Shown: piece after piece, positions 4,781-53,752 of the stretch
How the letters are laid out: every line of letters starts with the position of its first letter
Position numbering within the stretch: the stretch's first letter is position 1
From: Patescibacteria group bacterium
GTDB lineage: Bacteria; Patescibacteriota; Minisyncoccia; JAHIHE01
Reading direction: 5' to 3'
NCBI GenBank assembly: GCA_018896765.1
Contig: JAHILZ010000016.1
Span: 1 to 61,634 of the forward strand
Length of the DNA: 61,634 nt
Program-made: the position numbers and the translations under genes
The notes under the pieces: model-generated
The model's input: the letters and a program-made list of their open reading frames with translations, nothing else
The model's database searches: none
Told to the model about the DNA's origin: nothing

Positions 4781-6337
4781 ATGAACGCGCTTGATTTTCC
4801 CACACCGCGCACAACTAACGCGCGCGATTTTTATCTTCAAAGATTCGGAGAGGTTTTGCCGGGTTTTTTAACATGGTCGACATTTATCGGGGCCGTATTG
4901 GCGGCCATATATTATCCCGTGCATTTGGCGGTTTTTATGATTGTTTTTGATGTTTTTTGGCTGATCAAAGCCATATATGTTTCGATTCATCTCGTAGATG
5001 GATATGCTAAATTAAAAGAGAATCTTAAAATAGACTGGTTCAGCCGCGCAAGAAAAATAAAAGATTGGGAAAAAATTTATCATATCGTAATTTTTCCTGT
5101 TTACAAGGAGGGTTTGGAAATTATCCGTCCGTCAATTCAGTCTATAGTTGATTCTAATTATCCGAAAGATAAAGTAATCGTAGTTTTAACTTTTGAGGAG
5201 CGTTCAGGACGCGACCTGGTTAAAAAAAGAGTAGAAGCGGTGCGAAAAGAATTTTCTGATAAGTTTTTTATTTTTTTAGCCACCGTTCATCCTGACGGCA
5301 TACCCGGCGAGGCAAAAGTAAAAGGCGCTAACCTTACTTGGGCCGCTAAAAAAATCAAAAAAATAATCGATGAAAAGAAATTAAAATACGAGAATATAAC
5401 CGTCTCCACTCTTGATTGCGATAGCCGAGTCCATCCTCAGTATTTGGCGGCGCTATCCCATGCTTATTTGAATAATCCCAATCCCACTCGTTCAAGCTAT
5501 CAGCCTCTTCCGATGTTTTTCAATAATATTTGGGATACAACCTCGATCTCCCGGGTAATTATTACCGGTTCCGCTTTTTGGAATATGATTCAGGCTACTC
5601 GGCCTGAGCGCATAGTTACTTATACCAGCCATAGCATGAGTTTTAAGGCGGTTACCGATGTAAATTATTGGCCGGTAAATATGATTTCTGACGATTCAAT
5701 TATATTTTGGAAATGCTTTATTGTTTTTGGAATCGAATATGATATTAAGCCGATTTTTTTGCCTATTTATATGGATGCCGTTCAAGCTGAAACGGCTTGG
5801 CAAACGCTCGTCAATCAATATAAGCAATATCGCAGGTGGGCTTATGGCGCGGAAAATACCGCGATTATCTTGAGGGGATTTATTAAATACAAGAAAGTTC
5901 CTTTGAAGGAAAAAATTATAAGAATGTGGTCGGAAATTTACGGGAGGCATTCATGGGCCACCGCTTCAATTATGGTAGCAACCTTTGGCTGGCTGCCGTT
6001 TATTTTTGGAGGAGAAAACTTTAAAGGTTCGGTTCTGGCTTCTAATTTGCCTGTTACATTGAGAACATTGATGTTTGTCGCAATGTTTGGTCTTTTTGTT
6101 TCAGCTTTTCTTTCTGTTCTTATTGTTCCGCCTAATCCAAAGTTAAAAGGCAAGAAGGGCTATTTGCGGCTGATGCTGGAATGGATATTATTGCCATTCG
6201 TGGCTATTCCAATGGGTACATTGCCCGCAATTGACGCTCAGACCCGTTTAATGTTTGGAAAATATATGCAATTCTGGGTAACGCCGAAGATAAGAAAAGG
6301 AAATATTGAGACGGAAAAAGCTAAAATTGCAAATTAG
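4781..6337 (+). CDS. membrane-bound family 2 glycosyltransferase (processive synthase-like)
   Basis: GT2 core with a DCDS motif and a Q-x-x-RW-type motif (QYRRWAYGA), flanked by TM helices. Confidence 0.7.
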   Translation: MNALDFPTPRTTNARDFYLQRFGEVLPGFLTWSTFIGAVLAAIYYPVHLAVFMIVFDVFWLIKAIYVSIHLVDGYAKLKENLKIDWFSRARKIKDWEKIYHIVIFPVYKEGLEIIRPSIQSIVDSNYPKDKVIVVLTFEERSGRDLVKKRVEAVRKEFSDKFFIFLATVHPDGIPGEAKVKGANLTWAAKKIKKIIDEKKLKYENITVSTLDCDSRVHPQYLAALSHAYLNNPNPTRSSYQPLPMFFNNIWDTTSISRVIITGSAFWNMIQATRPERIVTYTSHSMSFKAVTDVNYWPVNMISDDSIIFWKCFIVFGIEYDIKPIFLPIYMDAVQAETAWQTLVNQYKQYRRWAYGAENTAIILRGFIKYKKVPLKEKIIRMWSEIYGRHSWATASIMVATFGWLPFIFGGENFKGSVLASNLPVTLRTLMFVAMFGLFVSAFLSVLIVPPNPKLKGKKGYLRLMLEWILLPFVAIPMGTLPAIDAQTRLMFGKYMQFWVTPKIRKGNIETEKAKIAN

Positions 6338-9702: not shown

Positions 9703-10002
9703 TTATTTGCCAAGCGCGCCACGGGAAAAACACTTTATATTCTTGACGAGCCCACTACCGGCTTGCATTTTGACGATATTAAAAAATTATTGAATGTCTT
9801 GCACCGTTTGGTTGACGGCGGAAATTCGGTAATCGTGATCGAGCATAATCTTGATGTGATCAAGCAGGCGGATTGGATTATCGATATGAGGCCGGAAGGC
9901 GGGGAGAACGGCGGCCGGATCATTGCTCAAGGCCCGCCGGAAGAAATTATAAAATACAAAGAAAGCTATACTGGGCAGTTTCTTAAAAAAGCGCTGAAAT
10001 AA
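9703..10002 (+). pseudogene. uvrA: uvrA remnant (last ~99 codons only)
   Basis: [24 protein letters not shown]...[29 protein letters not shown] is the C-terminal ABC signature/Walker B region of UvrA. The frame opens right after a stop, and about 840 upstream codons are absent. Confidence 0.8.
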
Positions 10003-10031
10003 AAAAAGAGTAAGGATTTCCCTACTCGTAC

Positions 10032-10391
10032 TTAATTGACTACTATTTTAGATTCCTTGAGGAAGTCGTGCAGTGCATGTATTTCTTGGGTTTTTAATTC
10101 GCTAAATCCTTCATTCAAACCTCCATTTAATGCTTGATACATTAAATTGAAAATTTTATAATCCTGAATGTTGTTTGGTGAAGAATGTACTTTGCGGCAA
10201 ATAACTATATTGAGACATCCTTTGCCAACTTCTACTCTGAGTTCTTTACCAGATACGATAAATTTAGGGTAAAGCCTTAAAAGTTCCTTTATCTCGTATA
10301 TAGTTTCTCTTACCTCTATTGTTTTAGTCTCTTCAAGAAAACACGGGTTTGCTTTCAGTTTTCTTATCTGATTTGTTATATCCAGTGTCGT
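10032..10391 (-). CDS. orphan ORF with strong SD but no canonical start (ACG or CTG)
   Basis: 119 open codons checked by hand. AGGAGG lies 8 nt upstream of ACG (10391) and 14 nt upstream of CTG (10385). The first ATG is only 36 codons before the stop. Confidence 0.35.
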   Translation of the reverse strand, partial: TTLDITNQIRKLKANPCFLEETKTIEVRETIYEIKELLRLYPKFIVSGKELRVEVGKGCLNIVICRKVHSSPNNIQDYKIFNLMYQALNGGLNEGFSELKTQEIHALHDFLKESKIVVN

Positions 10392-10443
10392 TTGTTACTC
10401 CTCCTATATTTGATTAATTTAAGCATAAACTAAAATTTCTAAA

Positions 10444-11097
10444 ATGTCAAGTATTTGTTCGGTTCCAAAATCTACCCACTACTTACTACCTACTACTCAC
10501 TACGCAATCCTTCCTTCCTCGCCCGGCGTGTATTTTTTCCGCGATAAGGCCGGAAAGCTTTTGTATATTGGAAAAGCGATCAATCTTAAGCGGCGGGTGA
10601 GTTCGTATTTTCAAAAAAATCATTTTGATCCGCGAATTGATGCTTACGATATTTCCAATATTTTCGGCGAGTATGCGGTCGGCAGTATGGTGGTCTTTGA
10701 TGATGGGAAAATAGATAAAGACGAATATCGGCGCTTTAAAATAAAAAGCGTAAAAGGAATTTTTGATACGGAAATGCTCGCGGAAGTTTTGAACCGCCGA
10801 TTAAATCATAACGAATGGAAAATGCCGGATTTGATAATTATTGATGGGGGATTGGGGCAATTGAACGCCGTAAAAAAAGTTTTGGAAAATCGAAAATTTA
10901 AAATCCCTTTAATATCCATTGCCAAAGGCCCGACTCGAAAAGGCGAGAAAATGTTTATGACAAAAAATGTTTGCCTAGACTCGAAGAGGATGGCGCCTAA
11001 TTTGGATAGAAAAATGATTCTTGCCGCGCGCGACGAAGCGCATAGATTTGCCATTTTGTATCATCGGAAATTAAAAAAGGGAGGAATGTTTAATTAA
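10444..11097 (+). pseudogene. uvrC: internally deleted uvrC
   Basis: The first ~35 residues of the GIY-YIG domain (GVYFFRDKAGKLLYIGKAINLKRRVSSYF) join directly to the C-terminal endonuclease domain (IDAYDISN, IIIDGGLGQL, RDEAHRFAI). At 217 aa versus about 600, the UvrB-binding and HhH domains are absent. Confidence 0.65.
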
Positions 11098-11294
11098 AAT
11101 AGGGGTTTACTCCGCGCCAATTCTTTGGATATTCTTGTTTTTGAGATAAAGAAAGCTGAAGGCGATGCCGAGAGATTATTGTTTAAATTATAAATTATTC
11201 TCACTTCGGAATTTGGCGCGGGGCTATGCGGGAAGGTTATTAAGTGTTATAATTTTACTATAGATACTAATTTTTAACAGCATTAATTTTATGA

Positions 11295-11374
11295 AACCCG
11301 TTAGAAATACATAAGTTATTTTAATGAGGTTTTAATAATAAATATAAAGCAGATATGGCAATTTTTAACGGGTT
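11295..11374 (+). promoter_or_regulatory. start-codon-enclosing hairpin module, copy 1
   Basis: aacccgttagaaat (11295-11308) pairs with atttttaacgggtt (11361-11374): 13 Watson-Crick pairs plus 1 GU. The 52-nt loop contains the ATG at 11355. Homologous to 42299-42377. Confidence 0.55.
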
Positions 11375-11816
11375 GAATGCCGATGTATTGGTGAAAAATA
11401 AATCGTTTTTACAGTTTGGCAAGTTTTTTATCGTAGGAATTTTAAACACAGGCCTTGATTTTGGCATTTTAAATTTATTGATGTGGTCGACGAATACTTA
11501 CGAAGGGCAATCGATAGTGATTTTTAATACAATATCATTTGCCATAGCGGTAACCAATAGCTATATTTTGAATAAATATTGGACTTTTGGCGATAAAAGT
11601 AAAGAGCAAGCTCCTCAACAATTTGCGAAATTTATTGGCGTTTCAGGGGTTGGCTGGGGTTTGAATACGGGAATTGTTTATTCGGTAACTACTTTAATAA
11701 GCCCGATTTTCGGCTTAGGCCCGGCGCTGTGGGCGAATATCGCCAAAGCAATGGCCACAGGGGTGGTTCTTGCGTGGAATTTCGCGGGATATAAGTTATT
11801 TGTGTTTAAAAAGTAG
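11355..11816 (+). CDS. GtrA-family membrane protein
   Basis: Four TM helices and GtrA-like motifs (FGKFFIVGILNTGLDFGILN, NKYWTF). Confidence 0.75.
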   Translation: MAIFNGLNADVLVKNKSFLQFGKFFIVGILNTGLDFGILNLLMWSTNTYEGQSIVIFNTISFAIAVTNSYILNKYWTFGDKSKEQAPQQFAKFIGVSGVGWGLNTGIVYSVTTLISPIFGLGPALWANIAKAMATGVVLAWNFAGYKLFVFKK

Positions 11817-11820
11817 GAAA

Positions 11821-11907
11821 AGTATCAAGTATTAAGTATCAGGTATTAAGTATAAAATAAGGCAAAATTAGATTTATACATAATACTTAATACATAATAC
11901 TTAATAC
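11821..11907. repeat. intergenic hairpin built from gtattaagtat words
   Basis: agtatcaagtattaagtatcaggtattaagtata faces tatacataatacttaatacataatacttaatac. Confidence 0.65.
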
Positions 11908-11976
11908 AAAAAAGCGGATTATGTTAATGATTTTTTATTATTAATAAAACTTGTAATTAGAAAAAAAACAATTATT

Positions 11977-19529: not shown

Positions 19530-19640
19530 ATTTTATTTTAATTAACCCGATTTCTAATTGATCTAATTAACCTAATTAAATCTTAATGATTAATTTCTAA
19601 TGATTTTTTGTCATTAGAAATTTGAGAATTGGACATTGAT

Positions 19641-19668
19641 TAGAAATTAGAAATTAGAAATTAGAAAT
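19641..19668 (+). repeat. tandem 7-mer (tagaaat x4) abutting the gdh start codon
   Basis: tagaaattagaaattagaaattagaaat, preceded by the hairpin atttctaatga/tcattagaaat. Confidence 0.8.
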
Positions 19669-19669
19669 T

Positions 19670-20953
19670 ATGTCCAGTAATTCCAACCCTTATCAAAACG
19701 CATTAACTCAGCTGGAAATCGCCGCCGGAGTTTTGAAAATAAACAAAGATATTTTGGAAATTTTAAAAGTTCCCAAAAGAATTTTAAAAGTATATATTCC
19801 GGTGCGGATGGATGACGGAAGCATTAAAAATTTCGAAGGATTCAGAGTCCAGCACAATGACGCGCGCGGGCCTTTTAAAGGCGGAATTCGGTTTTCGCCG
19901 GAAGTTTCAATGGATGAAGTGATGGCGCTTTCAATGTGGATGACATGGAAGACGGCGGTAGTCGGAGTTCCTTATGGCGGAGCCAAAGGCGGAGTGATTG
20001 TGGATACCAAGAAATTATCAAAAGGGGAGCTGGAAAGATTATCCCGCGGCTATGCGCGCGCGGTGCATAAATTTATCGGGCCCAATATTGACGTGCCGGC
20101 GCCGGATATGTACACCACGCCGGAAATTATGGCTTGGATGGCGAATGAATATTCAAGAATTGTCGGCGAAAACACCCCGGCATCTTTTACCGGGAAACCA
20201 GTTGAAGTCGGCGGATCGCTTGGCCGGGCGAACTCAACATCAGTTGGCGGAATTTATGTTTTGGAGGAAGCGCTGAAAAAAATTGGAAAAGAAAAACGGC
20301 ATATTACTGTAGCAATACAAGGAATGGGAAATGTTGGCGCTAATGCGGCGAAAATTTTATATAATGAAGATTGCAATATTGTGGCGGTTTCGGATTCTAG
20401 AGGCGGAATAATTTTAAAAGACCAAAGACCAAAGACCAAAGACCAAAAATTAAACATGGAGGGTTTAAATATTTTGAAAGTTTTGGAATATAAAGAAAAA
20501 AATGGCTCGGTTGCCGGATTTCATGGAACAAAAACAATTACCAATGAAGAATTGCTGGTTTTGCCGGTTGATGTTTTGATTCCGGCGGCGCTGGAAAATC
20601 AAATTACTATAAAAAATGCCCATGATATCAAGGCAAAAATAATTCTTGAGTTAGCTAATGGTCCGACTACGCCGGAAGCGGATAAAATTTTAGACGCGAA
20701 AGGAATTTTGGTTGTGCCGGATATTCTGGCCAATGCCGGCGGAGTGCTGGTGAGCTACTTTGAATGGGCGCAGAATCGAATGGGTTATTATTGGGATGAG
20801 CAAGAAGTTAATGAAAAATTAAAAAAGCAAATGATCCGATCATTTAATGATGTTTGGGCGGTTAAAGAAAAATATAAGGTTGATACCCGCGTCGCGGCGA
20901 ATATTCTGGCGCTGGAAAGAGTGGTTAAAGCGATGAAATTGAGAGGGGTGTAG
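19670..20953 (+). CDS. gdhA: Glu/Leu/Phe/Val-family dehydrogenase, probably glutamate dehydrogenase
   Basis: FKGGIRF with the catalytic Lys region, GMGNVG NAD(P) motif, C-terminal YFEWAQN. Confidence 0.85.
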   Translation: MSSNSNPYQNALTQLEIAAGVLKINKDILEILKVPKRILKVYIPVRMDDGSIKNFEGFRVQHNDARGPFKGGIRFSPEVSMDEVMALSMWMTWKTAVVGVPYGGAKGGVIVDTKKLSKGELERLSRGYARAVHKFIGPNIDVPAPDMYTTPEIMAWMANEYSRIVGENTPASFTGKPVEVGGSLGRANSTSVGGIYVLEEALKKIGKEKRHITVAIQGMGNVGANAAKILYNEDCNIVAVSDSRGGIILKDQRPKTKDQKLNMEGLNILKVLEYKEKNGSVAGFHGTKTITNEELLVLPVDVLIPAALENQITIKNAHDIKAKIILELANGPTTPEADKILDAKGILVVPDILANAGGVLVSYFEWAQNRMGYYWDEQEVNEKLKKQMIRSFNDVWAVKEKYKVDTRVAANILALERVVKAMKLRGV

Positions 20954-21193
20954 AAAAAGTTAAAAGTTAAAAGTTAAAAGTTCAAAGTTTTGGGCATTCG
21001 TTTTCAATTTTACTTGGATAATTGGGATAATCCAAGTGGAGTTTATGAAGTCAGAAAGTTAAATTTTTTGTCATTGCTTGCCCCGTTAGATAGTAATATT
21101 CTGCTTATAAGTGTTTGATATAAATTATCTAATGGAGCGAGGAGTCAGCAGACGACGAAGCAATCTCGTGCTTGGGGAAAAATTAAATGAAAT

Positions 21194-27377: not shown

Positions 27378-28580
27378 TTATTTTTTTACCGCTTTGGCTA
27401 CCGCTTTGGCTACCGCTTTGGCTACCGCTTTGGCTACCGCTTTGGCTACCGCTTTGGCTACCGCTTTGGCTACGCGCTTATCCAGCGCCGAAGGAATAAT
27501 ATAATTTGGCGCGAGTTTATTTTTTGGCACAAGATTGGCGATGGCATATGCGGCGGCAATTTTTGTTTTATCGGTTATTTCCTTGACGCGCGCGTCAAGA
27601 ATTCCGCGGAATAATCCCGGAAATACAAGCAGGTTATTAATTTGATTGGGATAATCAGAGCGGCCGGCGCCGATAATTTTGGCGCCGGCTTTTTTTGCTT
27701 CTTCGGGAGTAATTTCCCCGATTGGATTAGCAAGAGCGAAAATAATCGGATTTTTCGCCATTGCGCGAATCATTTCACGGGTTAGGATTTTTGGCGCGGA
27801 TACGCCGATAAATACATCAGCGTTTATTAGCGCTTCAGCCATAGTGCCTTGGAAATTTTTTGGATTTGTCAGCGAGGCAAGCTCCGTTTTGTATTTATCA
27901 TTGCCAACCCTTGAATTATATATTGCGCCTTTGGAATCGCAAACTATTAAATTTTTTGCTCCGGCAGCGGTTAAAAGCTTAGCGGTGGCGTTTCCCGCCG
28001 CACCCGCGCCGCACAGAATTATTTTCGCGCCGGCAATTTTTCTTCTGGATAATTTTAAGCCGTTGATGAGTCCGGCAAGAATTGCGATGGCTGTTCCTTC
28101 CTGATCGTCGTGAAAAACAGGAATATCCAGTTCTTTTTTTAATCGCTTTTCTATTTCAAAGCATTTAGGCGAGGCGATATCTTCAAGATTGATCGCTCCA
28201 AAAACCGGCGCGATATTTTTTACGGTTTTAATTATTTCTTCCGTATCCTGAGTGGCGAGGCAAATTGGAATAGCGTCCACATTGCCGAATTTCTTGAAAA
28301 GAATAGCTTTACCTTCCATGACAGGGAGCGCCGCCTCGGGGCCGATATTTCCCAAACCTAAAACTCGCGAGCCGTCAGTGACGATGGCAATCAAATTATT
28401 GCGCGAGGTGTAATCATAAACAGTTTTTTTATCTTTGGCGATTGCGAGGCATACCTCCGCTACGCCCGGCGTATAAGCGCAAGCGAGGTCGTTTTTTGTT
28501 TTGAGAGAAATCTTGCTTTTAATTTCGATTTTGCCTTTATTTTTGAAATGCAATTTTAAGGATTTTTTTCCGTAATTCAT
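27378..28580 (-). CDS. NAD(P)-dependent malic enzyme with (AKAV)x7 C-terminal tail
   Basis: YTPGVA, VVTDGSRVLGLGNIG-type and GAGAAG motifs. The C-terminus is a 12-nt tandem array. Confidence 0.85.
   Translation of the reverse strand: MNYGKKSLKLHFKNKGKIEIKSKISLKTKNDLACAYTPGVAEVCLAIAKDKKTVYDYTSRNNLIAIVTDGSRVLGLGNIGPEAALPVMEGKAILFKKFGNVDAIPICLATQDTEEIIKTVKNIAPVFGAINLEDIASPKCFEIEKRLKKELDIPVFHDDQEGTAIAILAGLINGLKLSRRKIAGAKIILCGAGAAGNATAKLLTAAGAKNLIVCDSKGAIYNSRVGNDKYKTELASLTNPKNFQGTMAEALINADVFIGVSAPKILTREMIRAMAKNPIIFALANPIGEITPEEAKKAGAKIIGAGRSDYPNQINNLLVFPGLFRGILDARVKEITDKTKIAAAYAIANLVPKNKLAPNYIIPSALDKRVAKAVAKAVAKAVAKAVAKAVAKAVAKAVKK
27387..27470. repeat. perfect 12-nt tandem repeat x7 (taccgctttggc)
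   Basis: Seven identical units. They encode AKAV x7 on the minus strand. Confidence 0.95.
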
Positions 28581-36321: not shown

Positions 36322-36402
36322 GGGTAGGTTGTAGTGAGTAATTTGTAGTATTAATTTCTACCCACTACTCACTACTCACTACTCACTACTCACTACTCAC
36401 TA
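36322..36402. repeat. intergenic hairpin; 3' arm is tactcac x6
   Basis: ggtaggttgtagtgagtaatttgtag faces ctacccactactcactactcac... It fills the whole prfB-ftsE spacer. Confidence 0.65.
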
Positions 36403-42166: not shown

Positions 42167-42298
42167 GTTTTATTATCGCTTTATAAAGCCGGTTGGTTAA
42201 AAAGAATTCTCAAAGATTCTTTTTTTTGCTTTTTTGGCCAAAAAATAGTAAAATTAAGATAAGAAAAAGAGCTTTTTAATTACAGTAAAACATTATTT

Positions 42299-42377
42299 AA
42301 CCCGTTAGAAATAAAAAAATATTTTTAATGCGGCGTGTAATAAATAAAACTATTGATATGACAATTTCTAATGGGTT
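42299..42377 (+). promoter_or_regulatory. start-codon-enclosing hairpin module, copy 2
   Basis: aacccgttagaaat (42299-42312) pairs with atttctaatgggtt (42364-42377). The 51-nt loop contains the ATGs at 42328 and 42358. Confidence 0.55.
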
Positions 42378-44943
42378 GAATAGAAGAGAGGAAGATATAG
42401 AATCGACGCCGATAGCCAGCTATGCGAAATATTCAAATGAAGATTTACTGGATGAACTTAAAACCTCTTTTAAAGGTCTTGCGGATAAAGAGGCGAAAAG
42501 ACGGCTTTTAAGATATGGCCTCAATATTCCGGCGCAGAAAAAAAAGATTTCAGCCGCTGTTTTATTATTCTCAAAGTTTCGCAATCCTTTAATCCTCACG
42601 CTTCTGGTTATAGCGCTTCTCTCGCTTTTTTTTGGCGAAGAAATAAACGCGATTTTTGTAGCGCTGATGATCTTGGTTAGCGTCGCGCTGGAATTTTCCT
42701 TGGAGTATCGGTCGGGCAAGGCGGTAGAAAAATTAAGCGATTTGGTTCGCACGAAAGTAGCTGTTTTTAGAGATGGCGCGCAAAAAGAAATAGATCTTTT
42801 TGATATTGTTCCGGGCGATATTATTGATCTTTATGCCGGAGATATGATTCCGGCAGACTTAAGGATCATTCAGGCAAAAGATTTATTTATTAATCAATCA
42901 TCTTTTACAGGAGAGTCTTTTCCAGTTGAAAAAACCGCCGCATTTGATAAAACTAAAAAAGAGGCGATAGAGAAATTGGAAAATATAGCTTTTATGGGTT
43001 CTAGCGTGGTTAGCGGGACAGGGCTTGGCGTGGCGGTTAAGACCGGAAAATATACTCAATTCGGGGAAATTTCCAGTTCGCTTGTCCGCATCGAGGAAGA
43101 AACCAGTTTTGACAGAGGCATCAAACAATTCACTATGCTGATGATTCATTTGATGCTTATTCTTGTAGTTTTTATTTTTTTTGCGATAGTGGTTTTAAAG
43201 CAAGGAATTTTTAAAGATGCCTTGCTTTTTTCTCTAGCGGTCGCGGTTGGGATTACTCCGGAAATGCTTCCTATGCTGGTTAGCATAAATTTATCGCGCG
43301 GCGCGGCCGATATGGCTAAGAAAAAAGTTATAGTCAAGCGCTTGAATTCCATTCAGAATTTCGGCGCTATGGATATTTTATGCACCGACAAAACAGGCAC
43401 TCTTACGCTCGACAAGATTGTCATGGTGAACCACTATGATGTTGAGGGCGATGAGGATAAAGAAGTTATGGAGTACGCGTATCTCAACAGTTCTTTTCAA
43501 ACCGGATTAAAAAATCTTTTAGACAAGGCAATTATCAGCCATGAAAAAATAACGATGGCGGGTTATCAAAAAGTGGATGAAATGCCTTTTGATTTTTCCC
43601 GAAGAATAATGTCCGTAGTGGTGGAAAAAGGCGGAAAGCATATTTTAATCGCCAAAGGCGCTCCTGAAGATATTTTTAACCATTCAAGCCATTATTATCT
43701 CAATGGCGAGATTCATAAAATTCACGATAAAATATTTTCTAAAGTGCAGGAAGAATACGATAAATTAAGCGGCCAAGGATTCCGCGTGCTGGCGGTAGCT
43801 TATAAAAATATTGAAAGCCCCAAAGCGATTTATTCCAAGAAAGATGAAAGCGGCCTTGTGCTTCGGGGATATCTTGCTTTTCTTGATCCTGCCAAGCCTA
43901 CCGTCAAAGAATCCCTTGGCGCGCTTGAAGAGCTTGGCATTGAGATAAAAGTTCTTACCGGAGATAACGAAATTATCACTGATAAAATATGCCGCGATGT
44001 CTCGCTTCACGTAAAGGGAGTTATTACCGGTTTTCAAATGGAAAATATCCAGGATGCCGAGCTTGAGCGCCTGGTAGAAAAAACTACTATTTTCGCGCGT
44101 TTGAATCCGATTCAAAAAGAGCGAGTAATCAAGGCGCTTCATAAAAATAATCATACGGTGGGTTATTTGGGGGATGGCATTAATGACGCGCCGTCGCTCA
44201 AGGCCGCGGATATTGGAATTTCCGTGAATAACGCCGTTGACATTGCCAAGGAATCGGCTGATATTATTTTGCTTCAAAAAAGCTTGATGGCGCTGAAAGA
44301 CGGCGTTTTGGACGGCAGGAAAGTTTTTGGCAATATTATTAAATATATTAAGATGAGCGCGAGTTCTAATTTTGGAAATATGATCAGTTTGACAGGAGCG
44401 ACTTTATTCTTGCCTTTTCTGCCAATGACGCCCTTGCAAATCCTTTTTAATAACTTTCTTTATGATATGGGCCAGCTTGCTTTGCCTAATGACGCGGTAG
44501 ATAAGGAATATCTTGCCAAGCCACGGCCGTGGAATATAAATTATATTAAAAAATTTATACTTTTTATCGGCCCTTTGAGTTCGATTTATGATTTTTTGAC
44601 TTTCGGAATAATGCTTTATATTTTCAATGCCGCGCAAAATCAGGAGTTTTTTCATACGGGCTGGTTTATCGAATCTTTGTTTACTCAGATTCTGGTTATT
44701 TATGTAATCAGGACTAATAAAATTCCATTCATTGAAAGCGCGCCGAATAAATTTCTTATTTTTAACACTCTTTTAGTTCTCGCGGTAGCGCTTGGCGTAG
44801 TTTTTTCATCATTCGCGGAATTATTCGGTTTTGTCGCGATGCCGCCGCTTTATTTCATTATTCTTTTTGTCTTGTTGGTCACATATCTTTCGCTGGTTCA
44901 AATTGTTAAAACATGGGTTGTGAGAAAGTATGGATATCAATAA
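42328..44943 (+). CDS. mgtA: P-type ATPase, MgtA-like (Mg2+ importing type)
   Basis: DKTGTLT phosphorylation site, TGES, GDGINDAPSLK, 10-TM layout. The true start may be the Met at 42358. Confidence 0.8.
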   Translation: MRRVINKTIDMTISNGLNRREEDIESTPIASYAKYSNEDLLDELKTSFKGLADKEAKRRLLRYGLNIPAQKKKISAAVLLFSKFRNPLILTLLVIALLSLFFGEEINAIFVALMILVSVALEFSLEYRSGKAVEKLSDLVRTKVAVFRDGAQKEIDLFDIVPGDIIDLYAGDMIPADLRIIQAKDLFINQSSFTGESFPVEKTAAFDKTKKEAIEKLENIAFMGSSVVSGTGLGVAVKTGKYTQFGEISSSLVRIEEETSFDRGIKQFTMLMIHLMLILVVFIFFAIVVLKQGIFKDALLFSLAVAVGITPEMLPMLVSINLSRGAADMAKKKVIVKRLNSIQNFGAMDILCTDKTGTLTLDKIVMVNHYDVEGDEDKEVMEYAYLNSSFQTGLKNLLDKAIISHEKITMAGYQKVDEMPFDFSRRIMSVVVEKGGKHILIAKGAPEDIFNHSSHYYLNGEIHKIHDKIFSKVQEEYDKLSGQGFRVLAVAYKNIESPKAIYSKKDESGLVLRGYLAFLDPAKPTVKESLGALEELGIEIKVLTGDNEIITDKICRDVSLHVKGVITGFQMENIQDAELERLVEKTTIFARLNPIQKERVIKALHKNNHTVGYLGDGINDAPSLKAADIGISVNNAVDIAKESADIILLQKSLMALKDGVLDGRKVFGNIIKYIKMSASSNFGNMISLTGATLFLPFLPMTPLQILFNNFLYDMGQLALPNDAVDKEYLAKPRPWNINYIKKFILFIGPLSSIYDFLTFGIMLYIFNAAQNQEFFHTGWFIESLFTQILVIYVIRTNKIPFIESAPNKFLIFNTLLVLAVALGVVFSSFAELFGFVAMPPLYFIILFVLLVTYLSLVQIVKTWVVRKYGYQ

Positions 44944-51956: not shown

Positions 51957-53752
51957 TTTGATAAAAGTATACTAAACTGGTTAAACCATAAAGGAGGTAA
52001 AATAATGGCAATGATGTCTGAAGAAGAAATAAAAAAGTATTTAAAGGAATGAAAGCAAAGCTTAAAGGATAGCAGGCAAGAAGAGGAAGGTTGGATTTTG
52101 TCATTGATTTGACATTTGGAATTTGTCATTTGACATTTTTTCTCAATCCCTGCCTCAATTCTTTTTAAAACTTTTTCTTTTCCCAGAACTTCGGCAATCT
52201 CAAAAGGGCTGGGCGAGAATTTAACGCCGCTTAATGCGACTCTCAAAGGCCAAAGCGTATCCCCTACTCCCAATTTTTCCATAAGTGAGTTTATGGCGAT
52301 TTCTAAATCTTTTTTATTAAACTTTTCTTCCGGCAAATTTTCTAATATTTTCGCGGTTTCCGCCAGATTTTCTTTGGCTTTTTCCAGTGTTGATTTTTTC
52401 CATTTCAAAAGCGCGGTGTCGTATTGTGGAATGTCAACAAAAAAATATTTTGTCGTTTCCGCGATGTCGGATAATTTTTTCATCCTCTCCTGTTCCAGCG
52501 CTACTACTTTTTTAAGCCAGTCAAAACTAATTTCCTCGCCCGTTTCTTTAACTTTAAATTTTGAACTGTAACTTTTCACTTTTAACTTTTCACTTTTAAC
52601 TTCTTCTATCATTCCAGCTTTAATCAAGTACGGCAAGCATAACTCTGTTAATTTTTCCAATTCCATTTTTCTAATATAATTCCCATTCATCCAATCCAAT
52701 TTTTTCAAATCGAAAATCGCGCCGGATTTCCCAACCTTGTCTAAAGTGAATTCTTTAATCATTTCTTCTCTGGTAAAAATTTCTTTTTCAGTCCCCGGAT
52801 TCCAGCCGAGAAGCAGTATAAAGTTAATGAGGGCTTCAGATAAGTATCCTTTTTCGATATATTGTCCTACCGCCGCATCGCCGGCGCGTTTGGAAAGCTT
52901 TTTCTTGTCCGCGCCGAGAATATTCGGCAGATGAGCGAATAAAGGCGGCTGCCAGCCAAAGGCGCCGTAAAGCATCAAATGAATTGGCGCGCTGGAAAGC
53001 CACTCTTCTCCGCGTATAACATGGCTTATTTCCATTAAATGATCGTCAATTACGCTTGCCAAGTGATATGTGGGAAAACCATCTGATTTTTGAAGAATAT
53101 AATCGTCAATTAAAGAATTATTGAATTGTACGGTGCCGCGTATAAGATCATTAAATTCTGTATTGCCGGTAACTGGAGTTTTAAAGCGAATTACGTATCG
53201 CGCGCCTGATTTTATTTTTTCCTCGATTTCTTTTGCGGATAATTCTCGGCATAGTCTATCGTAGCGAGTCGGATGTTTCTTGGCATTTTGCTCGGCGCGC
53301 ATTTTTTCCAGCCGTTCCGGCGCGCAAAAGCAATAATAAGCTTTTTCCGCATCAATAAGCGCTTGGGCATACTTTTTATAAATATCCAAGCGCTCGGACT
53401 GAATATACGGTCCGTAGTTTCCTAAACTTTGAACTTTGAACTTTGAACTTTGAACTTTCGTCATTGCCGGTCCTTCGTCCCAATCCAACCCAGCCCACTG
53501 AAGCATCTCAAGGATGTTTTCCAAAGCGCCTGGCAATATTCTTGCCATGTCCGTATCTTCGATACGCAATAAAAATTTTCCGCTATAATGTTTCGCGGTC
53601 AAATAACCGTAAAGCGCGGTGCGCAAACTGCCGATATGAAGATAGCCCGTGGGACTCGGCGCGAAACGGGTGCGGACTTCTTGCGGCAATAATTTGCCGA
53701 TTAAAATATTTGGTTGAACAATAGTTTTTGTTTCATCTAAAATCGAAATCAT
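51923..53752 (-). CDS. gltX: glutamate--tRNA ligase with repeat-derived insertions and C-terminal extension
   Basis: HIGSLRTA (HIGH) and KLSKR (KMSKS) motifs. At 609 aa, it has about 70 extra C-terminal residues plus two K/V/S/Q-rich inserts. Confidence 0.9.
   Translation of the reverse strand: MISILDETKTIVQPNILIGKLLPQEVRTRFAPSPTGYLHIGSLRTALYGYLTAKHYSGKFLLRIEDTDMARILPGALENILEMLQWAGLDWDEGPAMTKVQSSKFKVQSLGNYGPYIQSERLDIYKKYAQALIDAEKAYYCFCAPERLEKMRAEQNAKKHPTRYDRLCRELSAKEIEEKIKSGARYVIRFKTPVTGNTEFNDLIRGTVQFNNSLIDDYILQKSDGFPTYHLASVIDDHLMEISHVIRGEEWLSSAPIHLMLYGAFGWQPPLFAHLPNILGADKKKLSKRAGDAAVGQYIEKGYLSEALINFILLLGWNPGTEKEIFTREEMIKEFTLDKVGKSGAIFDLKKLDWMNGNYIRKMELEKLTELCLPYLIKAGMIEEVKSEKLKVKSYSSKFKVKETGEEISFDWLKKVVALEQERMKKLSDIAETTKYFFVDIPQYDTALLKWKKSTLEKAKENLAETAKILENLPEEKFNKKDLEIAINSLMEKLGVGDTLWPLRVALSGVKFSPSPFEIAEVLGKEKVLKRIEAGIEKKCQMTNSKCQINDKIQPSSSCLLSFKLCFHSFKYFFISSSDIIAIILPPLWFNQFSILLSKCQDLFYKKLI

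Follow-up and report, generated by a model that had tools for sequence, protein, structure and literature searches.

The 61,634-nt contig JAHILZ010000016.1 (GCA_018896765.1) of a Patescibacteria group bacterium, from a groundwater metagenome-assembled genome (MAG) and hereafter called the window, carries two long hairpin modules, each of which encloses the start codon of a gene. According to Pfam, the genes behind the two modules encode a GtrA-family protein (GtrA_DPMS_TM, PF04138) and a cation P-type ATPase, in agreement with the gtrA-like and mgtA-like calls of a first-pass annotation made from the sequence alone. Relatives of this ATPase are named magnesium-translocating in source databases. 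Here we describe these modules (the GtrA copy and the MgtA copy), a third and shorter relative in the same window, and a dispersed family of palindromic elements with the same ends.

In the GtrA copy the 5' arm aacccgttagaaat (11295-11308) pairs with the 3' arm atttttaacgggtt (11361-11374) across a loop of 52 nt, and in the MgtA copy the same 5' arm aacccgttagaaat (42299-42312) pairs with atttctaatgggtt (42364-42377) across a loop of 51 nt. Each stem comprises 14 pairs including one G.U, the position of which differs between the two copies. An ATG within the loop (11355 and 42358, respectively) starts 6 nt 5' of the 3' arm, and both open reading frames (ORFs) open with M-[AT]-I-[FS]-N-G-L-N. 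The first-pass annotation had described stems, loops, ATG spacing and the shared N-terminus correctly in every respect. The two modules are 76% identical over about 80 aligned nucleotides, and the predicted folds amount to -18.5 kcal/mol (z -2.2) for the GtrA module and -23.5 kcal/mol (z -4.6) for the MgtA module. A relaxed version of the arm-pair pattern hits 6 sites in the window at a shuffled expectation of about 7, and only three of these sites stand out; the third is the shorter relative already noticed at 21082-21135, which is present and represents a third, decayed copy of the family.

Comparison with orthologues in related genomes separates filled from empty sites. Most GtrA orthologues are 147 amino acids long and start with MN at the position of L7-N8 of the window protein, and among them the extension MAI[FS]NG occurs only in the window protein, in P0006 (83% identity) and in P0011 (77%). 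On the DNA level the module is present at the same site in loci L008 and L009, and three further loci whose orthologues share 84-87% amino acid identity are element-free (L010, ...cataattgtATGAATATC; L223, ...cattattttATGAATACT; L224, ...tatttatATGGATACT), reading ATGAAT (L010, L223) or ATGGAT (L224). The empty site is thus tgtATGAATATC and the filled site ATGAA[element]TGAAT; the junction in the window is ...tttATGAA[A CCCG...CGGG T]TGAATGCC, in which TGAA is duplicated. The same comparison holds for the MgtA copy: the orthologues P0098 and P0099 begin with MNR at element-free DNA (...cattATGAATAGA and ...ttttATGAATAGA), and L131 (89% identity) and L132 (86%) read ...ATGAATAGA, being the loci of these orthologues. 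Here the window junction is ...tatTTA[A CCCG...TGGG T]TGAATAGA. The left duplicate appears to have drifted to TTTA, by which the upstream ATG was lost and the stem was extended to 19 pairs. The features, as read from these comparisons, are as follows.

11296 to 11373, plus strand: element copy 1, 78 bp, composed of a terminal A, the CCCGTTAGAAAT arm, the loop, the ATTTTTAACGGG arm and a terminal T, in the start of the GtrA-family gene
11292 to 11295, plus strand: left TGAA duplication of copy 1, which together with A11291 keeps the original ATG (11291-11293)
11374 to 11377, plus strand: right TGAA duplication of copy 1; the terminal T11373 and the following TG make up the healed codon TTG (11373-11375) in place of the ancestral ATG
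11291 to 11314, plus strand: putative mini-ORF MKPVRNT*, read from the sequence and possibly translated, from the displaced ATG through the 5' arm to a stop in the loop
11318 to 11330, plus strand: internal degenerate copy of the 3' arm (ATTTTAATGAGGT), able to form a local fold of -12.3 kcal/mol (z -5.1) by pairing with the 5' arm
11355 to 11816, plus strand: GtrA-family gene from the element-borne ATG, 153 amino acids; the ancestral gene corresponds to 11373-11816 (Pfam PF04138, orthologue alignment)
42300 to 42376, plus strand: element copy 2, 77 bp, in the start of the Mg2+-type P-type ATPase gene
42296 to 42299, plus strand: left duplication of copy 2, degenerate, with TTTA for TGAA, a derivation that rests on the empty-site comparison
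42377 to 42380, plus strand: right TGAA duplication of copy 2, with the healed codon TTG at 42376-42378
42321 to 42333, plus strand: internal degenerate copy of the 3' arm in copy 2 (ATTTTTAATGCGG; local fold -9.9 kcal/mol, z -3.0)
42358 to 44943, plus strand: P-type ATPase gene from the element-borne ATG, 861 amino acids; the ancestral start is at 42376
21081 to 21137, no strand assigned: element copy 3, shorter and decaying, with the 3' arm TCTAATGGA for TCTAACGGG, intergenic between convergent genes and away from gene starts

Copy 1 is identical in six contigs of the same species, the MgtA copy holds a second in-frame loop ATG at 42328, and the flanks of copy 3 (CTTGC...GCGAG) equal those of the family members L014 and L041. 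In run X7, one of the groundwater metagenomes, the GtrA copy shows an A>T change in its 3' arm at window position 11367, which would break one stem pair, and a second change lies at 11450.

Based on these data, we consider it very likely that the two modules and the decayed third copy are insertions of a small, non-autonomous, palindromic element resembling a MITE (miniature inverted-repeat transposable element). A mobile 5' module was one of two options raised by the first-pass annotation, and the TGAA-flanked insertion, its absence from close orthologues and the large dispersed family described below bear it out. The mobility of the element is inferred from its anatomy and from presence and absence at orthologous sites. 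As the empty sites show, insertion into A|TGAA|T, the ancestral Met-Asn start, duplicated TGAA, displaced the old ATG to a position upstream of the hairpin and left T plus TG, that is TTG, at the head of the gene; the ATG in the loop, 18 nt upstream and in frame, most probably serves as the new start and gives M-x-I-x-N-G-L-N. The two proteins share L-N because ATGAAT was the original beginning of both genes and A|TGAA|T was the point of entry each time. The earlier statement that the module donates the first eight codons is hence right in that the element supplies codons, but strictly it supplies six, and L-N is the old M-N with methionine changed to leucine.

A scan of one genome per species with the pattern CCCGTTARAAA-N38-66-TTTYTAAYGGG, for which about 13 chance matches are estimated, returned at least 120 loci with the arm pair, and a second scan for the A:T-ended subfamily returned 87 metagenome loci. 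These numbers mean that the likeness of the two modules, as first remarked from the window alone, is not due to chance. Retrieval by an exact pattern under-samples diverged and one-armed copies and over-represents intact ones; moreover, related copies are non-independent observations and the ORF calls are mechanical. Record titles among the listed matches name Patescibacteria lineages, Planctomycetota (Pirellulales, Phycisphaerae and others), Deltaproteobacteria, a Gammaproteobacterium, Nitrospirae, Nitrospinota, Omnitrophota, WOR-3 and KSB1, at least 8 phylum-level lineages in all, and the flanks of the copies span AT-rich to GC-rich sequence. One event of duplication or gene conversion, by which a 5' leader passed from one of the two window genes to the other, would account for the 76% identity and the common reading frame of the two copies. 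However, hundreds of related copies with the same ends and their own duplications exist elsewhere, and copies of the same subfamily lie at other gene starts (L136, L138, L183) in a metagenome that also holds the window GtrA copy, so that we give this explanation a negligible probability.

The ends of the family, N-CCCGTTAGA...TCTAACGGG-N', are near-invariant, and further inward the stem is variable yet complementary, with a mean of 13 of the first 16 stem positions paired. The base pair outside the core is complementary in 94% of 131 copies (C:G in 67, T:A in 54). Loop length varies between 5 nt and over 100 nt, the loops of different family members are unrelated, and the elements measure 27-130 bp. 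In the flanking hexamers of the 131 copies, positions 2-5 are identical in 69-79% and take the form YNNR, most commonly TGAA, TTTA, TTCA or TAAA. The duplication therefore measures 4 bp, and sometimes 3 bp; it is identical over 4 nt in 80 of 140 copies and matches at three of the four positions in 19 more. A six-base duplication was considered and rejected, as hexamer positions 1 and 6 match in 49% and 38%, near the expectation from composition. Terminal inverted repeats, a duplication verified at empty sites, small size, lack of coding capacity and many dispersed copies are all features of a MITE.

Inverted repeats around a short AT-rich segment just upstream of genes may also be read as recombinase sites of an invertible promoter (inverton) or as paired operators of a DNA-binding regulator, and it fits such a reading that some loops contain TATAAT-like boxes and that the pattern matches both strands. 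On the other hand, known invertases act on segments longer than the 5-100 nt seen here, invertons have neither direct repeats at their flanks nor exact empty sites, and copies also occur inside ORFs. No recurrent recombinase or regulator gene was found nearby, and no alleles of opposite orientation were seen in the contigs of four metagenomes or among the seven identical contigs. We judge this alternative to be very improbable.

The copies reach a density of 4-5 in 8 kb (L076), and elements occur nested within other elements. A subfamily with GC-rich loops is always nested (duplication CCCG) in a second, partly degenerate element, and this composite unit is itself multi-copy (L134 5608-5676 and 7320-7387; L159 284-350 and 1930-1996; many Ga0315xxx sediment contigs); a 90-nt variant has a duplicated 5' arm. 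The stretches L205 2300-2720 and L202 1350-1770 (reverse strand) are 100% identical in the upstream flank and the 5' half of the element and diverge inside the loop, with different downstream genes (by our own reading, made with no family search, a glycosyltransferase versus an RmlD-like reductase). Two element copies seem to have recombined here and thereby to have reshuffled a sugar-pathway cluster. At L050 453-513, a complete short hairpin is followed by ATGAAG, a second, solo 3' arm and again ATGAA at the gene start, and at L138 (reverse strand) AAATTTCTAATGGG is repeated in the coding sequence after the element; both patterns suggest repeated hits or partial duplications at one start codon. 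Several copies lie within a few kilobases of rRNA genes (L040 3154-3454, L048 1-1671, L047 1-777, L052 7497-7609), L040 also with a group I intron. Two collections of viral contigs gave 0 and 3 pattern matches, and BLAST searches of plasmid and cultured-phage collections gave no match to the element.

With regard to position, 57 of 140 copies (41%) adjoin an ATG, GTG or TTG followed by at least 80 open codons, as compared to 1.6% of positions drawn at random and 4.7% of the RYNNRY sites of these loci. Among copies flanked by TGRA or TYCA, 45 of 52 lie at such starts. The first-pass annotation had named copies unrelated to start codons as the outcome that would speak for a random palindrome; the observed proportion is the opposite of this. 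In most cases the start is also still present in the left flank (ATGRAY|CCCG...CGGG|ATGRAN), and a TATAAT-like box frequently lies a few bases further upstream. The 42 downstream ORFs match 60 Pfam families, none of them in more than 2 ORFs, and the genes are ordinary ones, such as nucleotidyl transferase, Mur ligases, DnaA, CorA, pyruvate kinase, ribosomal protein L13, NDK and aminoacyl-tRNA synthetase. The genome search and tabulation of downstream genes that had been proposed thus brought out at least 120 loci and, in 57 of 140 copies, a link to start codons, but no common function of the genes. Recurrent insertion into orthologous genes was tested across species and dropped, since no two of the 43 start-abutted ORFs are the same gene.

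At least 15 further copies are internal to long ORFs. These are read in the frame CCC GTT AGA ... TCT AAC GGG, have multiple-of-3 lengths and contain no stop, and no frame-breaking intragenic copy was found. According to Pfam they sit within conserved domains, namely PurM-like, GatB, Mur ligase, class II aminoacyl-tRNA synthetase, Fe-ADH and others. The peptide they would encode reads PVR[NK]...[ILV]SNG.

One of these copies, at L084 5692-5754 in the Fe-ADH gene of a Phycisphaerae MAG from lake sediment, bears on a reading of the hairpin as an intron or as a site of translational bypass of the T4 gene-60 or 'byp' type, in which the flanking direct repeats would be take-off and landing sites. 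One metatranscriptome contig joins position 5685 to 5755, exactly 69 nt being skipped (the 63-nt element and the 6-nt repeat ACTCAT), which together with the direct repeats around the hairpin and the presence of copies in domains of essential genes would favour such a mechanism. DNA contigs from four runs span the element, but the DNA run X34, from a related strain, has the same 69-nt skip, and another RNA contig contains the element contiguous with the gene. Since the skip is present in DNA, the joined form is the empty allele and no splice product. L084 is a fourth empty site, intragenic and from another phylum. Furthermore, splicing or bypass would not need intragenic copies to be in frame, stop-free and of multiple-of-3 length, as all of them are. 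We therefore regard intron or bypass as highly unlikely. The target-site duplication has been checked against empty sites at the GtrA locus (L010, L223), at the MgtA locus (L131, L132) and by the 69-nt skip at L084. In addition, an RNA contig of a relative about 92% identical to L059 appears to cross an empty site, by our own reading of a loose contig end. Contigs from four groundwater metagenomes contained no excision allele in the population of the window itself.

Insertion at a start codon appears to be self-healing, in that the duplicated TG and the last base of the element would regenerate a start. The healed codon is ATG for elements with T:A ends, GTG for C:G ends and TTG for A:T ends, the window elements being of the last type. 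Within the element, an ATG that is in frame with the gene and open into it is found in 10 of 10 TTG cases, where the TTG cases comprise about four loop types and are hence not fully independent, in 9 of 14 GTG cases and in 2 of 43 ATG cases. This points to tolerance of a weak regenerated codon only if an ATG comes with the element, and the loop ATG appears to be under selection. From this trend, translation of the two window genes probably starts at the ATGs at 11355 and 42358. A Shine-Dalgarno-like motif precedes only 2 of the 36 genes (long ORFs) in the window, and many of its starts fit TGnTAnAAT-N6-ATG, with an extended -10 box at a distance of 6 nt from the ATG (for example 18609, 37154, 39531), which as a sequence pattern suggests that leaderless transcripts are common in this organism. 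Given so few Shine-Dalgarno motifs, an exposed AUG in AU-rich sequence is plausibly enough for initiation.

The stem spans codons 2-6 of the new reading frame, which raises the question of a role at the RNA level. The hairpin might primarily be a cis-regulatory RNA, such as a translational operator, a thermosensor or a riboswitch-like leader, that sequesters the first codons and is kept for shared control; a common translational control element was the second option of the first-pass annotation. The long-range stems around the start region are stable (-18.5 and -23.5 kcal/mol), and they would be mutually exclusive with the local hairpin that the internal arm copy forms with the 5' arm (-12.3 and -9.9 kcal/mol), an attenuator-like layout. 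Stem position 10 is G.U in the window, G-C in L008 and A-U in L009, and the near absence of Shine-Dalgarno motifs implies that the accessibility of the start site should matter. Yet the downstream genes across the family are functionally unrelated, the loops differ wholly between family members, and the same element is found inside ORFs and between convergent genes. Mismatches in the sense-strand stem comprise 18 G.U and 14 A.C, that is, they display no strand asymmetry. Close orthologues do without the element, and no Rfam family corresponds to it: at gathering score, the whole window and 24 related loci gave only tRNA, rRNA and one group I intron, and a permissive search of two 300-nt stretches gave no match beyond chance (E about 1 or more). 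A riboswitch was dropped from consideration after the Pfam annotation of the 42 downstream ORFs. As the primary nature of the hairpin, shared translational control thus seems unlikely to us, and in this form the option of the earlier reading is not supported. We rather take the long-range hairpin to be primarily the paired terminal inverted repeats of the inserted element, and any effect on translation, if there is one, to be secondary. The mini-ORF that crosses the 5' arm of the GtrA copy might link translation to the opening of the stem; the other copies have no such mini-ORF.

Several observations weigh against insertion of a MITE-like element as the whole explanation, and two of them speak for a regulatory RNA at the same time. 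First, the conservation of copies that share a site far exceeds that of neutral sites. The GtrA-site element of the window is 95% identical to that of L008 and 90% identical to that of L009, more than the window's two copies are to each other (76%), while third codon positions are only 68% (L008) and 52% (L009) identical and the sequence upstream in L009 56%. A purely selfish, decaying insertion would not predict this. A second case was found upstream of an RmlD-like gene, with 85% identity of the element versus 50% at third positions. A transferred recombination tract was rejected as the cause of the high identity in L008 and L009, as the adjoining coding sequence is without raised identity. 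Second, the internal degenerate copy of the 3' arm lies on the 5' side, relative to the gene, in 25 composite elements and on the other side in 1, and this bias suggests selection at the level of expression. Further, the GtrA copies are split between two clades of the gene tree that empty sites separate, the 4-nt duplication is perfect in no more than 57% of copies, and at the MgtA copy TTTA stands in place of an intact left duplication. The taxonomic breadth depends on the titles of MAG records, in which binning errors are possible. Finally, no transposase or autonomous element with matching ends was found in about 220 loci with about 1.5 Mb of flanks. Solo arms, arm pairs 250-5000 bp apart and recurrent clusters of neighbouring proteins (all housekeeping) were negative in this search, and the stretch enclosed by two inverted copies contains genes for LysM and YceD proteins but none for a transposase.

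A more far-reaching proposal would combine insertion with control. The element may be a portable, cross-phylum start-site cassette, placed by a piggyBac/IS1380-like and possibly host-encoded enzyme that aims at first codons and subsequently kept by selection, with competing hairpins that set the exposure of the ATG and exact excision that would make it a reversible switch of translation. We put this forward tentatively, as a rather doubtful extension of the insertion model. If true, housekeeping and envelope genes would be switchable in bacteria that are poor in Shine-Dalgarno motifs and prone to leaderless transcription.

These findings are of practical relevance for annotation, as in these genomes the first 6-25 residues of many predicted proteins, as well as some internal segments of about 20-30 residues, are element-derived (here MAIFNG and MTISNG), and start calls of gene finders differ between close relatives for the insertion alone. 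If confirmed, insertion that regenerates a start codon represents either an unusual choice of target or survivorship, and points to a widely shared transposase. Genes without Shine-Dalgarno motif or leader that tolerate a stem of about 20 kcal/mol at their start offer a natural experiment, and the copies may act as recombination points between sugar-metabolism and glycosyltransferase genes.

Some other features of the window deserve mention. Short tandem arrays with a 7-nt period fill the window, mostly in intergenic position and in many cases immediately ahead of a start codon (19613-19670 and more than 20 others, e.g. 11820-11853, 11876-11908, 20955-20989, 36358-36402, 52547-52602 and 53425-53458). 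One of them, ATTAGAA in 8.6 copies, reaches the ATG of the glutamate dehydrogenase gene at 19670, and its unit resembles the inner element arm (TTAGAAA). A report on Beggiatoaceae presents abundant intergenic heptamer repeats as a possible regulatory system (PMC4679880). A 1.3-kb segment (9707-11020) with a UvrA-like fragment (by our own motif reading) and an ORF of 217 amino acids of the GIY-YIG/UvrC-C-terminal type (10444-11097) is missing from the same-species contig L001, and gene tables suggest that L002 lacks it too and that L003 has it; these seem to be repair genes in decay, with polymorphism in the population. At 27387-27479, a 12-nt tandem array of TACCGCTTTGGC (7.7 copies, 98% matches) lies in a minus-strand ORF of 400 amino acids (27378-28580) and encodes a four-residue protein repeat.

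Among known systems, hairpins that control translation resemble the element in having a stem over codons 2-6 and an alternative upstream pairing. RNA thermometers and start-sequestering leaders are gene- or regulon-specific and vertically conserved, whereas the element is dispersed, polymorphic between close relatives and also present in ORFs and in intergenic DNA away from promoters. Integron attC sites have the arrangement 5'-RYYYAAC ... GTTRRRY-3'; the order in the element, 5'-GTTAGAA ... TTCTAAC-3', is the opposite, and attC was rejected on this ground. Repetitive extragenic palindromic (REP) elements are extragenic and have no target duplication. Like the present element they are short palindromes, sometimes paired as hairpins of about 100 bp (REPINs), and they are spread in trans by a single-copy host enzyme, the REP-associated tyrosine transposase (RAYT). 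REP elements carry a GTAG or CGTC tag (PMC3733652). The arms of our element are without such a tag, its sites are genic, a duplication is present and no RAYT-like or other transposase-like gene recurs nearby, and a REP/REPIN origin was rejected accordingly.

Closer parallels exist. Correia elements are confined to one genus, have a TA duplication and lie mostly upstream of or between genes. The Correia/NEMIS elements of Neisseria are likewise small, non-coding and multi-copy, with terminal inverted repeats that form hairpins and a short duplication, and they are gene-adjacent, co-transcribed, nesting and recombining; the present family differs in keeping its 9-11 bp ends across phyla, in the YNNR duplication and in the 41% of copies on a start codon. 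Rickettsia palindromic elements (RPE) are palindromes found in frame in housekeeping genes and translated as an extra peptide (PMC10969869). At least 15 copies of our element sit in frame inside housekeeping domains in the same manner, and, as far as a comparison by description can tell, the window copies differ from RPE in being N-terminal rather than internal fusions. RPE measure about 100-150 bp and are limited to Rickettsia, and to our knowledge neither a preference for the first two codons nor regeneration of the start codon has been described for them.

As for the mobilizing enzyme, ends in CCC, a duplication of 4 bp and empty sites that are exact may hint at a piggyBac/IS1380-like DDE transposase acting in trans, which we offer as a lead only. 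PiggyBac has CCC ends and a TTAA duplication with variants such as TAAA and TCAA, and IS1380 is its prokaryotic relative or outgroup (PMC10813416). Our element is similar in its CCC(G) ends, in the 4-bp T...A duplication and in the exact empty sites, as in footprint-free excision, but TTAA occurs in only 4 of 131 left flanks, there is an extra variable pair outside CCCG, and the transposase search was negative. The IS1380 duplication measures 4-5 bp, and the element arm CCCGTTAGAAAG/T resembles what we take to be the piggyBac end, CCCTAGAAAGATA.

In the literature, the motif strings were met only in unrelated papers on eukaryotes, viruses and primers, and no description of the family was found; in a 2024 review of prokaryotic MITEs, neither the phrase 'start codon' nor the word 'phyla' occurs. 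The element is in kind a MITE, and RPE-like when inside ORFs, and it apparently belongs to a family undescribed so far. It stands apart from these systems in that its ends hardly vary from phylum to phylum, its copies are concentrated on start codons and it supplies a replacement ATG.

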